In this document: in pieces, positions 1 to 6,590 of the stretch | Layout: each line of letters begins with the position of its first letter | Position numbering within the stretch: position 1 is the stretch's first letter | Source: a virus | Lineage: Duplodnaviria; Heunggongvirae; Uroviricota; Caudoviricetes | IMG/VR virus record: IMGVR_UViG_2654587711_000006 | Length of the DNA stretch: 6,590 nt | Strand: one strand, 5' to 3' | Program-made: the position numbers and the translations under genes | The notes under the pieces: model-generated | Seen by the model: the letters and a program-made list of their open reading frames with translations, nothing else | What the model was told of the DNA's origin: nothing | Database searches by the model: none

Positions 1-228
1 TCAATGTCGCGTAAAGGTAACTGTTACGACAACGCTCCGATGGAAAGCTTCTGGGGAACGCTGAAAAATGAGAGCCTGAGCCACTATCGTTTTAATAACC
101 GGGATGAAGCCATCTCAGTAATACGGGAATACATTGAGATTTTCTACAATCGTCAGCGTCGTCACTCTCGTCTGGGGAATATCTCCCCGGCAGCCTTCAG
201 GGAAAAATATCATCAGATGGCTGCTTAA
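1..228 (+). CDS. IS3-family transposase OrfB (DDE integrase), C-terminal fragment; 5' part is outside the window
   Basis: Translation ...SRKGNCYDNAPMESFWGTLKNE...YIEIFYNRQRRHSRLGNISPAAF matches the conserved C-terminal block of IS3-family OrfB proteins (GNCYDNA.ESFF..LK ... YNR.R.HS.LG..SP) as I recall them. The frame is open to the window edge. Confidence 0.8.
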   Translation, partial: SMSRKGNCYDNAPMESFWGTLKNESLSHYRFNNRDEAISVIREYIEIFYNRQRRHSRLGNISPAAFREKYHQMAA

Positions 229-271
229 AAAAAGAACAAATGGTAGTGTCCGCTATTGCCAGTACACCTCA
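1..271 (+). mobile_element. IS3-family insertion sequence, right (3') end only; the IS body lies left of the window
   Basis: Contains the C-terminal transposase ORF. The element ends in ...GTACACCTCA (terminal TCA is typical of IS3-family ends). The same ~270 bp recurs as a reverse complement at 6294-6590, and the match breaks exactly after CCTCA in both copies. Confidence 0.8.
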
Positions 272-413
272 GGGTATAAGGGGTTATGGCCACCGGACTA
301 CCAAACGGCTGCCAGCCCTCTTTCAGTTTATGTGTCAGCTTTTCCGCAAGATCTGACGGCGGCGCCGCCCTGACAACATCATAGTGTTTAAATGCCATGG
401 TTCTTTCCACCAT
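272..413 (-). CDS. Small hypothetical prophage protein, 3' end truncated by the left IS
   Basis: Minus-strand ORF starts at ATG 413 (alternative ATG at 398 giving MAFKHYDVVRAAPPSDLAEKLTHKLKEGWQPFGSPVAITPYT). The reading frame runs straight into the IS terminal sequence after ...PYT, so the native C-terminus is missing. Family not recognised with confidence. Confidence 0.4.
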
Positions 414-591
414 CTGAAAAATAATTCTTTAAAATACCTGACATGTAATACAGAAAAAACACAAAACCATACCTTAAATAAAAACCTGATTATCAAGCAG
501 ATATGCATGGATAAACTACAAGACGAGATATAAACCACCCTGCATTTAAATAAACAATAAACAACATCAGAAAAATAATTCTGCTCTATGG

Positions 592-618
592 TTTACATTC
601 AAAAATATCATTTATACT
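592..618 (+). promoter_or_regulatory. Candidate sigma70 promoter for the 659-994 ORF
   Basis: TTTACA at 592-597 and TATACT at 613-618 with a 15-nt spacer, about 40 nt upstream of the ATG, inside a very AT-rich divergent intergenic region. Spacer is shorter than optimal. Confidence 0.3.
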
Positions 619-658
619 TTTCAGAACATCACCAGCAAGGCATAAACAAGGAAACTAA

Positions 659-994
659 ATGAAGTGGATTGTGATTGATACAGTTATCCAGCCATCATGC
701 GGAATATCTTTTTCAGTCATATGGAGTAAAATAAAATTAATAATCTGGTATCAATCGGATGCTTTCTTACCTCCTGAAAGTATATTTACACTGACTCACA
801 CAGGCATCATGCTCAATAACAAAGTGCTACCTGTAACCATTTACAACGTAGTACCATTCAATAAAACATTCTGGAATTCAATCAAAAATAGCCAGGAATG
901 CCCTACAAATACAGATAACGTATTGAATGAATGCTTTAATAACCGTTGCACTCTGCAAATATGTCCTTATGGACTAAAACAACAAAGTCCATAA
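659..994 (+). CDS. Hypothetical protein (111 aa) in AT-rich island
   Basis: A 336-nt open frame in roughly 30 percent GC DNA, where random ORFs are short. Strong Shine-Dalgarno AAGGA 5 nt upstream of ATG 659. C-terminal Cys cluster (C-x12-C-x4-C-x4-C). Stop codon sits inside an 11-bp perfect inverted repeat. No family recognised. Confidence 0.35.
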
Positions 995-1009
995 GGAGTT
1001 TACTCACAT

Positions 1010-1050
1010 CTGACAAAATCAATATAAACAGCCCCTCCGGAGAGGGGCTG
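1010..1050 (-). terminator. Rho-independent terminator for minus-strand (late-direction) transcription
   Basis: Perfect 9-bp GC-rich stem CAGCCCCTC/GAGGGGCTG with a 4-nt loop at 1029-1050, followed on the minus strand by the U-rich tract TGTTTATATTGATTTTG. On the plus strand no T-tract follows. Confidence 0.6.
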
Positions 1051-1441
1051 GAGAGTGGCGCTATGTGCCATTGCATGGTGCCGGGTGCCTCCCGGTGAAT
1101 TCAGTACCAGCACCTGAATCCGCGATTATCCCATATACCTACTCGCTGATTGCCCCTCCGCACAGGGGGATTCACCATGCCAGTTTCTTTTAACAAACTC
1201 CCCGCAAACCAGACAACAGTCAACCGCCTGAATTGTGAAGTATTTAAAAATTTCTCCCGCTAACTGATACCCGGCTAACAGTCTGGCGTTTTCTTTTTCA
1301 GCAACGGGAAAGCAACAACCACCACACCCGCCACCAGCACACCGTCAGCCAGCACTGACATTATCCGGCTGCTGCAATGCCATTCACAAAAACAGTAAGC
1401 AATCACTTTTTACCGTAACAGGTGATAATCCAGATATGTAT

Positions 1442-1795
1442 CTACCCCAGATGAGTAATCCGAAGTTCATCCATACCACAGGTCCTGGCTATTCTGTTGT
1501 ACTCCTGAACAAGAGCAAATAATTCTGAATTAGCAACCATGAACTCATCGCAAACCCTCTGTATAGCATCACTATTCAGAATAATAACGTCTCTTCCCGA
1601 AAGACGATCAGGAGTACAGAACAAAACTGTCAAACGGCTGAAGGCCTTTGCTCGTGCTGCATTGACTATATCAATACGCTGCCTAAGGATGAAACACCCC
1701 GACGCCTCATCAATATTCACTCTACCCACACCATATGAATGATAAATATTTAATGCTGAAAAAACCATTAGACCGTATAACAAACACTCAATCAA
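1442..1795 (-). CDS. Hypothetical protein (117 aa from TTG; about 108 aa from internal ATG near 1768), moron downstream of Q and tRNAs
   Basis: Longest ORF between the tRNA cluster and the 1010-1050 terminator, co-oriented with late transcription. No recognisable family, signal peptide or catalytic motif by eye. Confidence 0.45.
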   Translation of the reverse strand: MIECLLYGLMVFSALNIYHSYGVGRVNIDEASGCFILRQRIDIVNAARAKAFSRLTVLFCTPDRLSGRDVIILNSDAIQRVCDEFMVANSELFALVQEYNRIARTCGMDELRITHLG

Positions 1796-1905
1796 TACTT
1801 AACAGAACTTTTATTTTTGACAAACATAAAATATTTTCAACAATATCCTGAGCCAGGTATATTTCAGTATAAGGCTCTGCCGGAAGGAATCTGGAAGAAT
1901 GAATA

Positions 1906-1982
1906 TGGCGCGCTGTACTGGATTCGAACCAGTGACCGATTGCTTAGAAGGCAATTGCTCTGTCCGGCTGAGCTAACAACGC
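1906..1982 (-). tRNA. tRNA-Arg (anticodon UCU), argO/argN-like phage tRNA
   Basis: Minus-strand sequence folds by hand into a full cloverleaf: acceptor GCGTTGT/ACAGCGC, D-stem GCTC/GAGC, anticodon stem ATTGC/GCAAT with loop CTTCTAA, T-arm ACTGG-TTCGAAT-CCAGT, discriminator G and encoded CCA. 77 nt. Confidence 0.85.
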
Positions 1983-1995
1983 TGAATACCGATAA

Positions 1996-2075
1996 TGGAC
2001 CGCCATCGGGGACCCGCCCCCGCACCAACAACCCTGTTATCGTGTCGTCTGCTCTTCCTGATAAGCTAATGGCGG
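1996..2075 (-). pseudogene. tRNA-like element, probably a degenerate tRNA gene
   Basis: Perfect 7-bp acceptor stem CCGCCAT/ATGGCGG followed by T and CCA, a D-arm GCTT/GAGC with a GG-containing loop, and a T-arm-like CGGGG/CCCCG stem. No canonical anticodon stem-loop and an atypical T-loop. Confidence 0.3.
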
Positions 2076-2082
2076 TTTGTGA

Positions 2083-2158
2083 TGGTGGCCCTTGCTGGAT
2101 TTGAACCAGCGACTTGGCGATTATGAGTCGCTCGCTCTCACCACTGAGCTAAAGGGCC
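2083..2158 (-). tRNA. tRNA-Ile2 (anticodon CAU, lysidine type), ileX/ileZ-like
   Basis: Hand-folded cloverleaf: acceptor GGCCCTT/AAGGGCC, D-stem GCTC/GAGC, anticodon loop CTCATAA, T-arm GCTGG-TTCAAAT-CCAGC, discriminator A and encoded CCA. 76 nt. Closely resembles E. coli ileX as recalled; a Met assignment cannot be fully excluded from anticodon alone. Confidence 0.8.
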
Positions 2159-2194
2159 GGGAGCAGAATAATAACGGTCCGTAATTAATTCCGC

Positions 2195-2223
2195 AATAAA
2201 AAACCCGCTCGGCGGCGGGTTGT
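2195..2223 (-). terminator. tR'-like rho-independent terminator between Q and the tRNAs
   Basis: Minus strand reads AACCCGC-CGCCGA-GCGGGTT followed by TTTTTATT, a 7-bp GC-rich stem plus U-tract. It lies about 40 nt downstream of the Q stop, the position of tR' in lambdoid late regions. Confidence 0.65.
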
Positions 2224-2260
2224 AGAAACTCTTCTAACGTCAGGCATAAAACGCCCATAG

Positions 2261-3115
2261 TTATGACGAATTTACCACAGATTCCGGAAAAATCAACCTA
2301 GTTACCTTTTTTAACTGCCGCTCAGCCCATGCTTCTTCAATATCAAACCGAGTCACCAGCGCATCATAGAATTTCTTAACTGTTTTTTCCCATGACGCGC
2401 GTGTTATCTGGTTTGTCACCTCGCATATAGCATTAAATGCCTCCGTTGATGGTAGTCTTTCATAGCCACGACCACCACAACGCTGGCAGTCTCTGATAAC
2501 AGGCATACCACGTTTTACCGACTCTTCACGATGAATGGCGACACCACGCCCACGGCAATCCTTACAGGCGGTGGAAACCTCACCCTTTCCGCCACACTCC
2601 GGACAGGCAACTTTTACCACCTCCCTGACTTTTTTCCATTCTTCCCAGTAAGACGGATACACACCTTTCGTACACTTTGCCCATACCGGCGGCTTACCAT
2701 CCGGATACTGGATCTTGTTTGTAAAAACCTCGCTTTCAATAAATTTTTTTCCGTGACAGCAGGGGCACTGTTTTTTGCTCGCCGCGCTACGGGCATAATC
2801 TTCAAACGCATACGAAGCCATAATACGCATCACTGCCGGTTTTATTTCTGCCGGGAGTTTTCTTAACGCCGCCACGCGATCACACCGACTGAGTGCATAT
2901 TCTGTCAGCAATTCTGTTGCCCGCTCTCTGTCATTCATACTAATGCCCATTTTCCCAAGGAACGCAGAAACCCCCATCTCAGCCCGATTCTGTGTCATGC
3001 CCTGCGCGGCCATCACATCAGTGATACTCAGCGCATCTTTCGACGTTGAGGCCGATGCATCAGTCAGGCCGGGGGATTTTGGGGAGTAGTATTTCGGTAA
3101 ATCTTCCAGTTTCAT
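2261..3115 (-). CDS. Late-gene antitermination protein Q-like (284 aa) with DnaJ-type zinc-finger repeats
   Basis: Canonical position after rusA and before the late promoter, tR' and tRNAs. N-terminus MKLEDLPKYYSPKSP... resembles QuuQ/phage-82-type Q proteins as recalled. Contains CPCCHGKK, CPECGGKG, CKDCRGRG and CQRCGGRG (CxxCxGxG-like). Start overlaps the rusA stop (ATGA). Confidence 0.7.
   Translation of the reverse strand: MKLEDLPKYYSPKSPGLTDASASTSKDALSITDVMAAQGMTQNRAEMGVSAFLGKMGISMNDRERATELLTEYALSRCDRVAALRKLPAEIKPAVMRIMASYAFEDYARSAASKKQCPCCHGKKFIESEVFTNKIQYPDGKPPVWAKCTKGVYPSYWEEWKKVREVVKVACPECGGKGEVSTACKDCRGRGVAIHREESVKRGMPVIRDCQRCGGRGYERLPSTEAFNAICEVTNQITRASWEKTVKKFYDALVTRFDIEEAWAERQLKKVTRLIFPESVVNSS
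2262..2300 (-). promoter_or_regulatory. Candidate late promoter (pR'-like) overlapping the 3' end of the Q gene
   Basis: Minus strand has TTGATT (2296-2291), a 16-nt spacer, then TAAATT (2274-2269), placing the start near the Q stop codon and about 65 nt upstream of the tR'-like terminator. A qut site cannot be resolved by eye. Confidence 0.4.
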
Positions 3116-3492
3116 TTTTTGACCTGCCCTTCAAGCATTATGGGATAAATCTTCACCCCCAGACGTCCACCAGATACTGGCTGAGCACGAACGATATTGA
3201 TTTCATCAAACTGCTCATCGTCCATTAGCAACCCCGCATGCGTCAGCGCATCCAGCGGCGCTTTCAGAATATTGTCCAGGTCACGGCGGCGCTTATCCGG
3301 TGGTTCTGCAATAATTTTTATTGCCAACCTTCCGGACAGGCTTAATTTCAGCCGCTGCTGGCGAACAATAAGCGCCACTGCCCGGCGATAACGCTCCCCG
3401 GCTTTTGATACAAAATATGTGCTGCCACGACGACGCCAGTAAGTGTTCACCGTCGGCGGGTAAGGTAAAACAAATTCTATGCGCTCGGTCAT
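3112..3492 (-). CDS. rusA: RusA-family Holliday junction resolvase (126 aa)
   Basis: Motifs shared with E. coli RusA as recalled: LPYPPTVNTYWR, PDKRRRDLDN, DALTHAG...DDEQ, GGRL. Size matches. Start abuts the DUF968 stop. Confidence 0.85.
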   Translation of the reverse strand: MTERIEFVLPYPPTVNTYWRRRGSTYFVSKAGERYRRAVALIVRQQRLKLSLSGRLAIKIIAEPPDKRRRDLDNILKAPLDALTHAGLLMDDEQFDEINIVRAQPVSGGRLGVKIYPIMLEGQVKK

Positions 3493-4551
3493 TTATGCTT
3501 TCCACTTCAGAACACCCGAATTTCTCGCGTGCATTAAAAAACGAATCAGCAACAACAGCTGACTGCCGTGTTTCTCTTCAAAATCTTTTACTCCGGCATG
3601 TAGTTCGTTACGGCATTTACGGCATAACGGAATAACAAACAAATCATCAGCCTTTGTTCCCATCCCTCCCAGTCCATGACCAATGATGTGATGCGGATCA
3701 TCTGCCTGATTGCCACACGTCATGCATTTCTGCGTTTTTACCCAGCGCGTGTATACAGGCATCTCTTCCCGTTGTGATTTCTGGCGCTGGAGATACTGAG
3801 CCGGTGACTCCGGATCAACGGCAATGCTGACCACCGTCTTTTCCTGTGGTGGGTTCTGTTGCTGGTGGACGTGAGGCAGTAACGCAATATTTTTTGTGCG
3901 CTGCTTCAGTATGCTGGTGGCTGTCTGCTCTCCCGGTATGATGTCGCTTTCACTGTACACAGAGCGAATTTTTTCCGCACGCAACCCCAGCGAACGACGT
4001 AATACCGCTTCCGGTAGCGCGTCCGCCACCTGATTGCGGACCGCCCACCAGGATAATTCAGCCAGAGATAATTCACGCTCCTGCGTACCGCTTATTGCGT
4101 GACCGATGACGTCAATCATCCATGCTGACAGGTTTTGATGAGCAAGTTGCTCGAGTGATTCGGATGTCTGGTCACGCAGCTGGTTGTCGCAGTGCCAGCA
4201 CAACACCATTGCGCCGGTACCATAACGGTGAATGACGGTTTCGCTGTGATGATAATCGCCGTGTGGCCACTGGCAGGATTTAATATGGCGCAACAGCCAG
4301 TCAGACAATGCACCAGCACCACCAGCAGCACGAATCACCCGTGCGTTACTGAAAAACGGCAGCAATGTTTTGTCTTCCACCAGCGGCTGGCGAGCGGCAG
4401 GAACGACCCCGGACGGCAGATTACGCATGCTTTTTGGTTCCGGCTCCACCAGTATTCTGCCGTTATGGAATGCTGACATTGATTCACGGCCTGGCTTAAC
4501 GATAACCAGACCGAGTTCCGGTACCAGAACAGGTCGAAGTAATACCCGCAC
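3493..4551 (-). CDS. DUF968-like prophage protein (YdfU-like, 352 aa) with Cys/His HNH-like motif
   Basis: Long ORF with C-terminal CMTCGNQADDPHHIIGHGLGG...CRKCRNELH cluster. Position upstream of rusA and Q matches Qin-like prophages. GGAGG sits 5 nt upstream of ATG 4551; an internal ATG (MSAFHNG..., near 4479) is an alternative start. Confidence 0.6.
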   Translation of the reverse strand: MRVLLRPVLVPELGLVIVKPGRESMSAFHNGRILVEPEPKSMRNLPSGVVPAARQPLVEDKTLLPFFSNARVIRAAGGAGALSDWLLRHIKSCQWPHGDYHHSETVIHRYGTGAMVLCWHCDNQLRDQTSESLEQLAHQNLSAWMIDVIGHAISGTQERELSLAELSWWAVRNQVADALPEAVLRRSLGLRAEKIRSVYSESDIIPGEQTATSILKQRTKNIALLPHVHQQQNPPQEKTVVSIAVDPESPAQYLQRQKSQREEMPVYTRWVKTQKCMTCGNQADDPHHIIGHGLGGMGTKADDLFVIPLCRKCRNELHAGVKDFEEKHGSQLLLLIRFLMHARNSGVLKWKA

Positions 4552-4626
4552 ATTACCTCCAGATCCGTTGCTGGAATGTGCGGGACGGACGCGTTGGCCG
4601 TTCGGAGTAAGGGAGCCTGACGGAGA

Positions 4627-4911
4627 TTATCCAGTGACGGTAGTCGAGGCTAAGGGCTTTTTTAACCTCGCATCCGCGCCTGCGGTAACACTGAATGAGC
4701 CATTCGGCCTGTTCTTCAGTGCATGGGGGATGCTGGTACCAATCAGATTTAAATGCGTGAGAGCGCCGCCCGTGCCTGCTGGCAAAGACGGCTGAATTAT
4801 CAGAATTGTGTAGTCTGGAAGGCAGTGGCTGACAATAGCGCCATTCTCAACGCGCACAGTATAGAGGCCATCTTCACTAAAAATTTCACGTAATTCTTCG
4901 ATTTTCATCAA
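4627..4911 (-). CDS. Small hypothetical protein at the position of rem in Qin-like prophages; possibly frameshifted
   Basis: ATG near 4908 preceded by AAGGA. The N-terminal 40 aa (MKIEELREIFSEDGLYTVRVENGAIVSHCLPDY...) look protein-like, but the C-terminal half is Ser/Thr/Gly/Ala/Pro-rich like an off-frame product. The -1 frame is open for about 93 codons and ends in TAA overlapping the DUF968 ATG. Confidence 0.4.
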   Translation of the reverse strand: MMKIEELREIFSEDGLYTVRVENGAIVSHCLPDYTILIIQPSLPAGTGGALTHLNLIGTSIPHALKNRPNGSFSVTAGADARLKKPLASTTVTG

Positions 4912-4990
4912 CAGAATCCTTCCAGATAAATAGCACTCCCCTGTTCGGGGTCCATCCCTCTTCTCCCTGCGCGCTACTTAAGTATTTTTG

Positions 4991-5020
4991 ATTCTATTCC
5001 GGCACCATCTAAAACTTCAA
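4991..5020 (-). promoter_or_regulatory. Candidate sigma70 promoter for the 4911 to 2261 operon
   Basis: Minus strand TTGAAG (5020-5015), 18-nt spacer, TAGAAT (4996-4991), located between the hok terminator and the downstream ORF. Confidence 0.35.
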
Positions 5021-5026
5021 ACGCGT

Positions 5027-5060
5027 TGAAAATAAAAACAAAAACCCGCCGAAGCGGGTT
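5027..5060 (-). terminator. Rho-independent terminator at the 3' end of the hok mRNA
   Basis: Hairpin AACCCGC-CGAA-GCGGGTT (5043-5060) followed on the minus strand by TTTTTGTTTTTATTTT. Gives an mRNA of about 420 nt from the inferred 5' end, typical of hok mRNAs. Confidence 0.65.
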
Positions 5061-5128
5061 AAGTGTGGGTGCATTGAGGATGCCTGACCCATCAGAGGTG
5101 GCGAGGGATTTCTCCCCCGCCTGGTCTC

Positions 5129-5284
5129 TTACTCCTCAGGTTCGTAAGCTGTGAAGACAGCGACCTCCGTCTGGCCGGTTCGAATTCGTACCTCGCAGAG
5201 GTCTTTCCTCGTTACCAGTGCCGTCACTATGACGGTTAAACAGATGACGATCAGGGCGATTAACATCGCCTTTTGCTGCTTCAT
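5129..5284 (-). CDS. hokD: Hok-family membrane toxin (51 aa), HokD/RelF-like
   Basis: Translation MKQQKAMLIALIVICLTVIVTALVTRKDLCEVRIRTGQTEVAVFTAYEPEE matches HokD (RelF) of E. coli K-12 as I recall it: single TM helix and conserved C...C-E-(I/V)-R motif. The ORF-track entry 5129-5341 is an in-frame upstream extension. Confidence 0.8.
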   Translation of the reverse strand: MKQQKAMLIALIVICLTVIVTALVTRKDLCEVRIRTGQTEVAVFTAYEPEE

Positions 5285-5490
5285 AGCCTGCTTCTCCTTG
5301 CCTTTCGGCACGTAAGAGGCTAACCTAGATTTGCCGTTCATAGATTGAGCCTCAGATTAATGTTAAGCGTCTTGCCGGACGCGTAATGTTAACTGGGGCT
5401 TTTCTCTATCTGCCTTTTGGTGTTCATGCCTGAGACAGATAGCCTCAAGCACCCGCTGCAATTCTACTTAACTCTCCTTTTCCCGCAAAC
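5285..5490 (-). promoter_or_regulatory. hok mRNA leader with upstream promoter (mok-like frame, sok-target region)
   Basis: Minus-strand GCTTGAGGCTATCTGTCTCAGG..., ...AGCCCCAGTTAACATTA... and ...AGCCTCTTACGTGCCGAAAGGCAAGGAGAAGCAGGCTATGAAG parallel the plasmid R1 hok mRNA 5' end, leader and mok/hok start as recalled. TTTGCG/TAGAAT promoter-like hexamers just upstream (about 5487-5459). An intact sok antisense gene could not be delimited. Confidence 0.55.
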
Positions 5491-5495
5491 CGTTT

Positions 5496-5579
5496 TTATC
5501 CCCAGCGGCAAATCGAATACACCACCAGCGCCACCGCCATCGCAATTCCTACCGTTGTTAATGCTTCAGGCCAGGTCAT
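5496..5579 (-). CDS. Candidate 27-aa hydrophobic peptide, translationally coupled to the 114-aa gene
   Basis: ATG overlaps the stop of the upstream gene (ATGA); GGAGG lies 10 nt upstream. Translation [27 protein letters not shown] has one hydrophobic stretch. Below the ORF-track size cutoff; could be fortuitous. Confidence 0.3.
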
Positions 5580-5920
5580 CGTAAAATATCCTCCACGCTT
5601 ATCAGTCCGTTCCGCTCCAGATAACTCATCGCCTTATCCGGTAATTTGCAGTCTGGCTTCGCTTTCCTCAGTTGCCAGGTTAACTGCTTTACCAGCATGG
5701 TTAACTCATCGACCAGACGCTGATATCCCACTGGTTTGTATTCATGCAATTTACCGGCTGGCTCTGCTGCCAGCGATACCAGTGCGATTTCCAGAACAGC
5801 AATATCCATCTTATATGTGCGGATGATGTCATGGTCGATTGTGCCCGGTATGCACAGTCTCTGTGCTTCAATAGTCTCCTCTGCGTGAGCTATTAACTGC
5901 TCTCTGGTAAAAGTCGTCAT
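5576..5920 (-). CDS. Hypothetical protein (114 aa), paralogous at its N-terminus to the upstream 55-aa ORF
   Basis: ORF with ATG overlapping the upstream stop (ATGA). Shares MTTFTREQ with the neighbour's MTTITKER and [11 protein letters not shown] with its [11 protein letters not shown]. Carries a C-terminal extension of about 56 aa. Not similar to RelE, ParE, MazF or other toxin families I can recall. Confidence 0.6.
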
Positions 5921-6084
5921 GCCGTAGCCCCTTCTTGATATTTTTCAAACCAGAACACAACCGGCTCTGCTTCCAGCGATGCCAGCGCAATCCGTGCCAG
6001 TTCCATTTGTTCACCACGGGTAAGCCCGTTTTCAAGCGGGTTTTTAATGAACAATTCAATACGTTCTTTGGTAATAGTGGTCAT
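5917..6084 (-). CDS. Hypothetical small protein (55 aa), not in the ORF track
   Basis: Hand translation: [62 protein letters not shown] 6-7 nt upstream of ATG 6084. The stop overlaps the next start. Occupies the frame opposite the spurious track ORFs 5868-6059 and 5935-6213. Confidence 0.5.
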
Positions 6085-6094
6085 GTGTTACTCC

Positions 6095-6293
6095 TTAACC
6101 CGCAGTGCTTTCAACTGATGAGGGGAACAAAATCTTTTCATCAAACCCTGCATTCATATCATGAACAGCAACACACCAATCCATCGACGAACGATTATCA
6201 AGAGCCTCCATGATTTCATCCATGCGGCGTAGGTCATACAGGTAAATGCTTTTATCGCCAATGGTGTAAAAGCCAATTTTTTTCGGTGATGGA
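6095..6293 (-). CDS. Hypothetical protein, 5' end truncated by the right IS (C-terminal about 65 aa retained)
   Basis: The open frame exits the IS terminal sequence and continues ...PSPKKIGFYTIGDKSIYLYDLRRMDEIMEALDNRSSMDWCVAVHDMNAGFDEKILFPSSVESTAG. The track's start MVVSAIASTPH is encoded by IS end sequence. Its stop is followed within 10 nt by the RBS and ATG of the 55-aa gene. Confidence 0.45.
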
Positions 6294-6590
6294 TGAGGTG
6301 TACTGGCAATAGCGGACACTACCATTTGTTCTTTTTTTAAGCAGCCATCTGATGATATTTTTCCCTGAAGGCTGCCGGGGAGATATTCCCCAGACGAGAG
6401 TGACGACGCGGACGATTGTAGAAAATCTCAATGTATTCCCGTATTACTGAGATGGCTTCATCCCGGTTATTAAAACGATAGTGGCTCAGGCTCTCATTTT
6501 TCAGCGTTCCCCAGAAGCTTTCCATCGGAGCGTTGTCGTAACAGTTACCTTTACGCGACATTGATGTTTTCAGACCAGACTGCTCCTGTA
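6294..6590 (-). mobile_element. IS3-family insertion sequence, right (3') end only, inverted relative to the copy at 1-271; body lies right of the window
   Basis: Reverse complement of 6294-6562 matches 4-271 with a single mismatch visible (CAG vs CCG in the transposase, Q to P). The terminal TGAGGTG... is the complement of the ...CACCTCA end. Confidence 0.8.
6337..6590 (-). CDS. IS3-family transposase OrfB, C-terminal fragment; continues beyond the window
   Basis: Same 74-aa C-terminal sequence as the left copy apart from one residue. The frame stays open upstream of the listed Met to the window edge. Confidence 0.8.
   Translation of the reverse strand, partial: QEQSGLKTSMSRKGNCYDNAPMESFWGTLKNESLSHYRFNNRDEAISVIREYIEIFYNRPRRHSRLGNISPAAFREKYHQMAA

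Follow-up and report, generated by a model that had tools for sequence, protein, structure and literature searches.

A Shigella sonnei draft contig bounded by inverted IS600 ends probably joins two separate prophage remnants

The stretch of DNA analyzed here (6,590 nucleotides; the window) begins and ends within inverted, near-identical insertion sequence (IS) ends, which raises the question of whether the 6 kb in between constitutes a unit that moves or inverts as a whole, as a preliminary description had proposed. A repeat search of the window placed the arms at 1-271 and 6294-6564, each 271 nt long with 6022 nt between them, so that the coordinates given earlier (4-271 and 6294-6562) were correct to within 3 nt. 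Aligned with both strands read, the arms match as reverse complements at 270 of 271 bases, which is far beyond chance. The sole mismatch, A at 155 versus G on the plus strand at 6410, amounts to a Gln-to-Pro change in the C-terminal part of the transposase.

The description had also recognized these arms as IS3-family ends with their right ends facing inward, an assignment that we confirm. Many elements annotated by PGAP as "IS3-like element IS600 family transposase" share 99.7% identity with positions 6294-6590, the copy at L012 9762-10032 matches positions 1-271 at 100%, and the incomplete products encoded at either end of the contig hit the rve_3 and rve_2 domains. Counted on the full 1264-bp IS600 at L012 8769-10032, which has TG...CA ends (TGAGGTAGCC...ACACCTCA), the left arm (1-271, plus strand) covers element positions 994-1264 and is truncated by the start of the window, while the right arm (6294-6590, minus strand; 297 nt) covers positions 968-1264 and is truncated by the contig end. 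The 3' end of orfB occupies 1-228 (plus strand) of the left arm, which then closes with the IRR, the last letters of which are ...CACCTCA. Both arms end in this motif, at 271 and 6294, and so turn their IRR, downstream of orfB, toward the interior; of the two termini of each copy, the window includes just the CA end. Full IS600 copies at these junctions are likewise 1264 bp long with TG...CA ends and carry orfA/orfB, encoding products of 100 aa (HTH_Tnp_1) and 272 aa (rve) or a fused product of 385 aa. Compared with IS600 in S. sonnei chromosomes, the arms are 99.7 to 100% identical, the junction sequences are those of closed genomes, and the element itself shows no difference; the window, however, holds just 271 and 297 nt of it, the contig stopping there. 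Judged by sequence, both arms are real ends of IS600, a common Shigella element of the IS3 family and one of the five ISs expanded in all Shigella (PMC7373316).

The window coincides with the whole of the 6590-bp contig LJOH01000187.1 (range 1-6590) of the draft Shigella sonnei assembly GCA_001443165.1, and this contig was the single record retrieved with the 83-aa product that is cut by the contig end. The window stops inside IS600 at both ends because the element is a multicopy repeat, which the assembler was unable to traverse. In other words, the IS ends at the window edges are the points where the assembler stopped.

What lies beyond these points is seen in closed chromosomes. Across 19 closed S. 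sonnei assemblies, from which 20 closed loci (10 A and 10 B) were compared, the two IS600/prophage junctions sit in separate lambdoid prophage remnants, A lying close to ompW and B close to yecE/cmoA. In closed chromosomes of 4.8 to 5.0 Mb, remnant A reads IS600-76aa-55aa-114aa-hok-DUF968-RusA126-Q273-Mtase and remnant B reads IS21-85aa-RusA124-Q284-DUF3927-IraM-DUF1737'-IS600, with strain 53G (HE616528.1) among these chromosomes. Junction a is marked by a 76-aa open reading frame (ORF) (6095-6325, minus strand) that starts inside the IS600 end, and closed chromosomes carry this marker only in remnant A, adjoining the ompW region. Junction b is marked by a truncated DUF1737 ORF of 57 aa (225-398, minus strand; the N terminus of a NanS-type esterase) that runs into the IS600 end, the insertion point being placed by comparison with the intact prophage L001; closed chromosomes carry this exact protein only in remnant B. 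Contigs above 1 Mb carry the junction proteins in 83 and in 73 blocks of the protein collection. In CP022457.1, the one closed chromosome in which both junctions were seen, the IS ends lie at about 4,096,952 and 3,362,550, 734 kb apart, with the IS600 copies inverted and their IRRs inward and the two Q genes in direct orientation. Every closed genome examined shows the junctions in unaltered form, and strain 53G, which belongs to lineage II, has the B junction as well. Near identity of the arms had been read as a sign of recent transposition or gene conversion, a reading that is not supported, given that the full-length IS600 copies of the loci compared are 99.7 to 100% identical to one reference copy and that the junctions are fixed in closed genomes. 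Both are genuine IS600 insertions, old and fixed.

Between its arms the window is a mosaic of the two remnants. Positions 272-2195 are found only in remnant B and show zero differences from L022; they contain iraM (PmrD family; 659-994, plus strand) and, all on the minus strand, the small RNA STnc100 (1020-1209), DUF3927 (1275-1406), a tRNA-Arg UCU (1906-1982), and a tRNA with a CAU anticodon (2083-2158). Homology between A and B starts at 2196, and up to 2369 the window has B-type alleles at four of four diagnostic sites (2259, the absence of an 8-bp insertion at 2295-2299, 2351, and 2369). There follows a perfect A/B repeat of 343 bp (2370-2712), which lies inside gene Q and is 100% identical in 20 of 20 closed loci. 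In the remaining homology (2713-3484), comprising the N-terminal part of Q and rusA (3112-3492), the window is A type at all 68 sites that tell B apart. Positions 3485-6293 are found only in remnant A and carry DUF968/ydfU (3493-4551), a rem-like gene (4553-4908), hok (5129-5341), sok (5279-5454), and ORFs of 114 aa (5576-5920) and 55 aa (5917-6084), all on the minus strand. By alignment, window positions 1-2712 show 0 differences from B and positions 2370-6590 show 1 difference from A, namely, the IS single-nucleotide polymorphism (SNP). The diagnostic sites agree across all closed loci (10/10 A and 10/10 B), and the crossover or misjoin thus falls within the 343-bp interval 2370-2712, itself embedded in 1.3 kb of 92 to 100% homology. 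As a result, the 284-aa Q antiterminator (2261-3115, minus strand; Pfam Antiterm) is a hybrid with a B-type C-terminal and an A-type N-terminal part. In content and order the interior resembles lambdoid late-regulatory regions (ydfU-rusA-Q, hok/sok, rem, iraM, and tRNAs): prophages at ompW and the phages vB_EcoS-640R1 and mEp460 show 90 to 94% DNA identity over 44 to 74% of it, and the Escherichia coli ST131-type prophage L001 is 95.6% identical. In contrast to these regions, the window is a decayed remnant that is truncated by IS600 at both ends and lacks the methyltransferase that L001 has between Q and the tRNAs.

We consider it probable that the window arose by misassembly across the Q repeat, as a chimera of two remnants 0.73 Mb apart. 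It is an assembled contig, it switches within a perfect repeat, and each of its sides is identical to a different locus of finished genomes. The contig path runs from junction a through the hok-ydfU-rusA region of A into gene Q, crosses the 343-bp stretch in which A and B are identical, and continues through the tRNA-DUF3927-iraM-DUF1737' region of B to junction b, omitting the roughly 0.73 Mb that separates the two Q copies. Most likely, the assembler or scaffolder took the wrong exit from the Q repeat, in which case the 6-kb IS-bracketed segment would be no physical unit. The contig's identity, its mosaic structure, and the closed-genome arrangement are observations; that the join is an artifact in this particular isolate we infer as most likely.

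The distribution of the join is in line with such a chimera. None of the 20 closed S. sonnei loci is hybrid; the exact hybrid Q protein is listed in 385 blocks of the protein collection, none of which has it on a contig above 84 kb; and in 5,426 closed E. coli genomes the join region (Q/rusA) finds a best identity of 97.2%, with the hybrid Q absent. The G at 6410 is also carried by CP179977.1, a closed genome with a standard A locus. Likewise, window-type joins are found on both alleles of the B SNP at 2114, and standard closed genomes have both alleles as well. Hybrid Q also occurs in three loci with seemingly intact prophage contexts (L002, L006, and L007), all of them drafts. Given their draft status and the absence of that Q from closed E. 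coli and Shigella genomes, we treat these layouts as probably mosaic too.

Other draft assemblies disagree with one another at this locus. Designating the hok-ydfU-rusA side of A as A-right, its methyltransferase side as A-left, and the tRNA-DUF3927-iraM-DUF1737' side of B as B-left, six draft contigs run from A-right to A-left (L004, L009, L010, L034, L078, and L093) and five from A-right to B-left (the window, L005, L011, L032, and L033). Draft L080 contains the reciprocal hybrid, drafts L004, L009, and L034 have B-type patches at 3128-3185 inside A, and both paralogues appear in tandem layouts in drafts L003, L005, L008, L066, L076, and L127. The contigs that share the join of the window have differing contig-end overlaps (51 to 107 nt in L032, L033, L005, and L011). 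The prefixes CXBN, CXBR, and CXBV are listed for the Holt S. sonnei collection, a CX* accession series (PMC5447701), and L004 and L009 carry prefixes of the CX* series (CXCN and CXAM). The mean read length in the Holt collection is 59 bp (PMC7373316), and a repeat of 343 bp therefore cannot be spanned by such reads. This behavior is reminiscent of the collapsed or misjoined paralogous repeats known from short-read assembly of genomes rich in ISs and prophages: such contigs also end in multicopy ISs, the window likewise switches loci in a perfect repeat exceeding typical reads, closed genomes lack the arrangement, and other drafts of the locus give inconsistent mosaics. In contrast to the typical case, the join recurs in several assemblies, and for this isolate the chimera is a probable one, judged by comparing sequences.

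This recurrence brings us to the main alternative, namely, that the contig is correct and that homologous recombination between the remnants produced a real 6-kb hybrid bracketed by inverted IS600 copies, which we regard as possible but rather unlikely. The recombinant could have arisen by gene conversion or a double crossover, with the Q repeat and IS600 as arms and the B-left copy replacing A-left, or by a Q x Q crossover in a genome whose A and B had come to face opposite ways through a previous inversion. The crossover would have occurred in a perfect 343-bp repeat within a long stretch of homology, and A-left and B-left alike lie between Q and an IS600 that faces inward, with these two homologies oriented alike in both, which makes real gene conversion mechanistically easy. 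The A-right to B-left join is found in at least four further assemblies and reciprocal hybrids exist, as a recurrent or inherited recombinant would give. Moreover, the extent to which the contig reaches into the ISs (271 and 297 nt) and the fact that an SNP specific to one IS copy was recovered suggest that reads were about 300 nt long, and pairs of such reads could in principle have resolved a 343-bp repeat. Closed S. sonnei genomes do rearrange at these IS copies (L020), and IS-flanked inversions are documented in this species (PMC12795559). Against a recombinant stand the consistently nonhybrid closed loci, the confinement of hybrid Q to contigs of no more than 84 kb, the standard arrangement in CP179977.1, which carries the private IS SNP as well, and the occurrence of the join on two SNP backgrounds that each have standard closed representatives. 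In addition, the drafts split about 50:50, and some tandem layouts look impossible, a pattern that suggests repeats left unresolved, not lineages. That this isolate swapped the distal part of its ompW-adjacent remnant for a copy from the second remnant 0.73 Mb away, using Q and IS600 as arms, is accordingly a doubtful proposition. If true, the replacement would restore a full-length 284-aa Q antiterminator and make a true 6-kb hybrid between inverted IS600 copies.

Far less probable is a composite transposon, in which the two IS600 copies would move the enclosed prophage genes together. It is the geometry alone, two inverted IS copies around 6 kb, that suggests this, whereas neither junction varies in position among the closed S. 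sonnei genomes examined. The IS600 copies are complete in closed genomes yet flank no 6-kb segment there. The flanks in closed genomes, given as IRL side/IRR side, are ...TTT/TCC for the A-junction copy and ...TAG/GGG for the B-junction copy, so neither has a 3-bp target-site duplication; nor is there one at the level of the unit, the outer flanks of which read ...TTT and CTA... on one strand. As a control, clean 3-bp duplications (GGA/GGA and GTG/GTG) flank two further IS600 copies from these loci. The lack of duplications at the junction copies implies earlier IS-associated rearrangements; it is no argument against their identity as IS600 and indicates later rearrangement at both copies. When the unit was sought in other genomic contexts, it was absent from the 5,426 closed E. 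coli genomes, as was either IS600 junction, with only the interior being found (95.6% identity, in four pieces). The exact junction patterns had 0 matches each in species-representative genomes, probably because Shigella has no separate representative there, and the other copies of the unit are only equivalent draft contigs (L032 and others). Without target-site duplications or another context, a composite transposon has no support, and we reject it on these grounds. The composite transposon-like unit of the preliminary description is not supported: the window is a draft contig with a mosaic A/B interior, the junctions of which belong to separate remnants in closed chromosomes, and the supposed 6-kb unit between ISs is unremarkable and probably does not exist as such.

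The proposal that the inward-facing copies are a substrate for inversion stands in part. In the closed genome CP045932.1, the A-junction IS600 is joined to the outer flank of B (8,768 bp at 99.93% identity), and this exchange of flanks is a 0.73-Mb inversion by recombination between these IS600 copies. As in other IS-mediated large Shigella inversions, 1264-bp inverted IS copies are involved and flanks are exchanged. The segment between the copies is, however, about 0.73 Mb in closed genomes, and an inversion of 6 kb is without support. Finally, a real deletion of roughly 0.73 Mb between the directly repeated Q genes, of which the window would be the exact junction given the orientation of A and B in CP022457.1, is hardly conceivable and was rejected, since about 15% of the chromosome would go, the ompW-cmoA interval carries many essential genes on the E. 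coli K-12 map, and viability would be very unlikely.

In conclusion, IS600 insertions in decayed Shigella prophages and IS-mediated rearrangements are well documented, and the biological weight of this locus is small. Its lesson is one of method: a contig that starts and ends in one and the same IS mimics a composite transposon only because assemblers halt at repeats. The hybrid Q gene should also caution anyone who bases gene-content or pangenome analyses on short-read Shigella assemblies.

The inverted repeat at the ends of the window is real and is IS600. Its 271-nt arms (1-271 and 6294-6564) lie 6,022 nt apart and, with both strands read and aligned to reference copies, differ at a single position (A at 155 versus G at 6410 on the plus strand), which exchanges Gln for Pro at the C terminus of the encoded transposase. 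The left arm is truncated where the window begins, and the right copy runs on to 6590; this 297-nt arm is 99.7% identical to the "IS3-like element IS600 family transposase" that PGAP assigns in thousands of E. coli records, and partial products at both contig ends match rve_3 and rve_2. Relative to the full 1,264-bp IS600 at the same junction in a closed chromosome (L012 8769-10032; TGAGGTAGCC...ACACCTCA), the arms represent positions 994-1264 and 968-1264, that is, the 3' end of orfB plus IRR, and the IRR of both points to the window interior. The near-identical, inward-facing IS3-family ends of the preliminary description are thus borne out. Their near identity is uninformative as a sign of a recent event, since the full-length copies of IS600 in the loci retrieved match the reference copy at 99.7 to 100%.

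Exactly one record contains the 83-aa product truncated at the right end of the contig: range 1-6590 of contig LJOH01000187.1 (GCA_001443165.1). The window is therefore an entire contig of a draft assembly. Shigella reference chromosomes carry 229 to 348 IS copies each (PMC7373316). Short-read Shigella contigs typically stop inside multi-copy IS elements, as this one does at both ends, so that the bracketing partly reflects the assembler's stopping points.

Published closed genomes of S. sonnei already contain the IS600 elements and the two sites of insertion. As markers we used two exactly matched ORFs that straddle an IS/prophage border, of 76 aa for junction a at the right end (6095-6325, minus strand) and of 57 aa, DUF1737', for junction b at the left (225-398, minus strand). 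Both occur on closed chromosomes of 4.8 to 5.0 Mb, including HE616528.1, identified as S. sonnei 53G (PMC5447701), at different places. Junction a belongs to a lambdoid prophage remnant, A, that adjoins yciA-yciB-yciC-ompW and runs IS600(+), ORFs of 76, 55, and 114 aa, hok, DUF968, RusA (126 aa), Q (273 aa), a 65-aa ORF, and a methyltransferase, followed in 8 of 10 closed A loci by a second, inverted IS600 and then nanS. Junction b belongs to a second remnant, B, with the order IS21, 85-aa ORF, RusA (124 aa), Q (284 aa), tRNAs, DUF3927, IraM, DUF1737', IS600(-), outside which lie a Dam/invertase element and then yecE-yecN-cmoA-cmoB. In CP022457.1, the only assembly in both marker lists, the inner IS ends (at about 4,096,952 for A and 3,362,550 for B) are 734 kb apart, with the two IS600 copies inverted, IRR inward, and the two Q genes in direct orientation. 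Remnant A is structurally polymorphic among closed genomes in its second IS600, which L013 and L018 lack, and in a roughly 250-bp insert with a second rem-like ORF, located between window positions 4820 and 4821 in some S. sonnei genomes (L013, L018, L004, L009, and L010). In 53G (L024 10128-12168), an IS1 splits the B-junction IS600 into positions 1117-1264 and 1-1126, with the IS1 genes between them.

The interior is part of a lambdoid prophage late-regulatory region, 90 to 96% identical to lambdoid phages and prophages. Rightward of iraM (659-994, plus strand), all on the minus strand, lie the sRNA STnc100 (1020-1209; full-length RF02076 match, 132 bits), located between iraM and DUF3927 (1275-1406); tRNA-Arg (UCU; 1906-1982) and a tRNA with a CAU anticodon (2083-2158), both downstream of Q; the Q antiterminator (2261-3115); rusA (3112-3492); ydfU/DUF968 (3493-4551); a rem-like gene (4553-4908); hok (5129-5341; HOK_GEF, 70-aa call); sok (5279-5454; full-length RF01794 antitoxin RNA match, 112 bits); and ORFs of 114 aa (5576-5920) and 55 aa (5917-6084). 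The STnc100 match contains two GC-rich hairpins (1031-1047 and 1152-1168). The CAU tRNA is Met according to ARAGORN and Ile as annotated in the related E. coli prophage L001; its pairing with tRNA-Arg (UCU) is typical of lambdoid and Stx-type phages. Together, hok and sok (5129-5454) form a type I toxin-antitoxin module within the prophage remnant.

Compared with closed loci, the window is a mosaic. Positions 1-2712 show no differences from B (L022), and 2370-6590 show one from A (L012), the IS SNP at 6410. Within the homologous stretch, A departs from the window only at 2259, by an 8-bp insertion at 2295-2299, and at 2351 and 2369, and B departs at 68 sites between 2713 and the end of homology at 3484; the same diagnostic pattern was seen in 10/10 closed A and 10/10 closed B loci (19 assemblies). 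Since A matches from 2370 and B up to 2712, the switch falls inside a 343-bp stretch identical in A and B (2370-2712), within Q. The window amounts to the real 734-kb IS600-bracketed segment minus everything between the two Q copies. Closed S. sonnei genomes have two Q alleles, of 273 aa in A (L012 13211-14032), a length due to the 8-bp insertion near the gene's 3' end, and of 284 aa in B (L022 7284-8138).

The 6-kb "IS-bracketed unit" is, in our view, probably a construct of the draft contig, with a chimera across the Q repeat as its likeliest origin. The 284-aa hybrid Q was found only in fragmentary assemblies, with none of the 385 blocks of the public collection that list it on a contig longer than 84 kb; the junction proteins, in contrast, were on contigs of more than 1 Mb in 83 and 73 blocks. 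Neither the A-B join (best identity across it, 97.2%) nor junction a or b was found in 5,426 closed E. coli genomes. That the join is real, reflecting recombination between the two remnants, seems rather unlikely to us. It would agree with the recurrence of the same join in several assemblies with differing overlap lengths, and overhangs of 271 and 297 nt hint at a read length of about 300 nt, with which read pairs could have spanned the repeat. Moreover, the parts left of the repeat, A-left and B-left, each have Q on one side and an IS600 facing inward on the other, which would allow gene conversion or a double crossover to exchange them without a lethal deletion.

The draft layouts, however, are varied: six contigs cross the repeat from A-right into A-left (L004, L009, L010, L034, L078, and L093) and five from A-right into B-left (the window, L005, L011, L032, and L033), L080 carries the reciprocal hybrid, L004, L009, and L034 have B-type patches at 3128-3185 within A, and L003, L005, L008, L066, L076, and L127 place both paralogues in tandem in one scaffold. 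In S. sonnei, a clonal species with hybrids at 0/20 closed A and B loci, such diversity suggests unresolved repeats and, hence, a chimera. Three more observations favour a chimera. L004 and L009 bear CX* accession prefixes, a series used for assemblies of the Holt collection (PMC5447701), whose mean read length was 59 bp (PMC7373316). SNP 6410G is real, being also present in closed CP179977.1 with a standard A locus. Joins of the window type are found with either allele of SNP 2114, and both alleles are also present in closed genomes of standard arrangement. The exact hybrid Q is also carried by drafts L002, L006, and L007 (84, 11.7, and 44 kb), which over the rusA-Q stretch (2260-3600) show one difference from the window at most (2114). 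To the right of hok (about 5311-5477) these drafts depart from the window and continue as an early region that seems intact or as a Mu-like prophage; they may be additional chimeras involving a third prophage paralogue, or a real phage that is intact.

A composite-transposon-like unit, as initially proposed, is not supported, as the outer flanks in closed genomes (TTT and CTA) hold no target duplication for the whole unit and a second context was not found. At the level of single copies, 3-bp duplications are absent from the A-junction IS600 (...AATTTT on the IRL side, TCC... on the IRR side) and the B-junction IS600 (...GATTAG and GGG...) and present at the second IS600 of A (GGA on both sides) and a strain-specific copy in L029 (GTG on both sides). 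IS600 thus does make such duplications, and the two junction copies have lost theirs via later rearrangements. In an intact relative, the insertion point is followed by a stretch (L001 15554-15840) whose counterpart in A is inverted and lies 2.2 kb from junction a. Its first triplet, GGA, is that of the inner flank, and it borders a truncated lambdoid integrase next to ompW. The piece resembles one half of the original target duplication of IS600, since displaced; an IS1 and a DUF977 fragment separate it from the IS600. The stretches compared were L012 6290-6830 and 8379-8768 versus L001 15554-17728.

In CP045932.1 (L020), the A-junction IS600 is joined, in reverse, to the outer flank of B (8,768 bp, 99.93%; L020 1-10032 versus L022 10128-20159), and the A- and B-junction copies have therefore recombined in nature, across about 0.73 Mb. 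This arrangement indicates an inversion of roughly 0.73 Mb between these two inverted IS600 copies; from closed S. sonnei genomes, inversions flanked by IS elements are on record (PMC12795559). The suggested inversion between the IS copies thus holds in kind, but its size is about 0.73 Mb rather than 6 kb. As a by-product, our analysis advises caution when short-read Shigella assemblies show hybrid genes or pseudo-composite structures.
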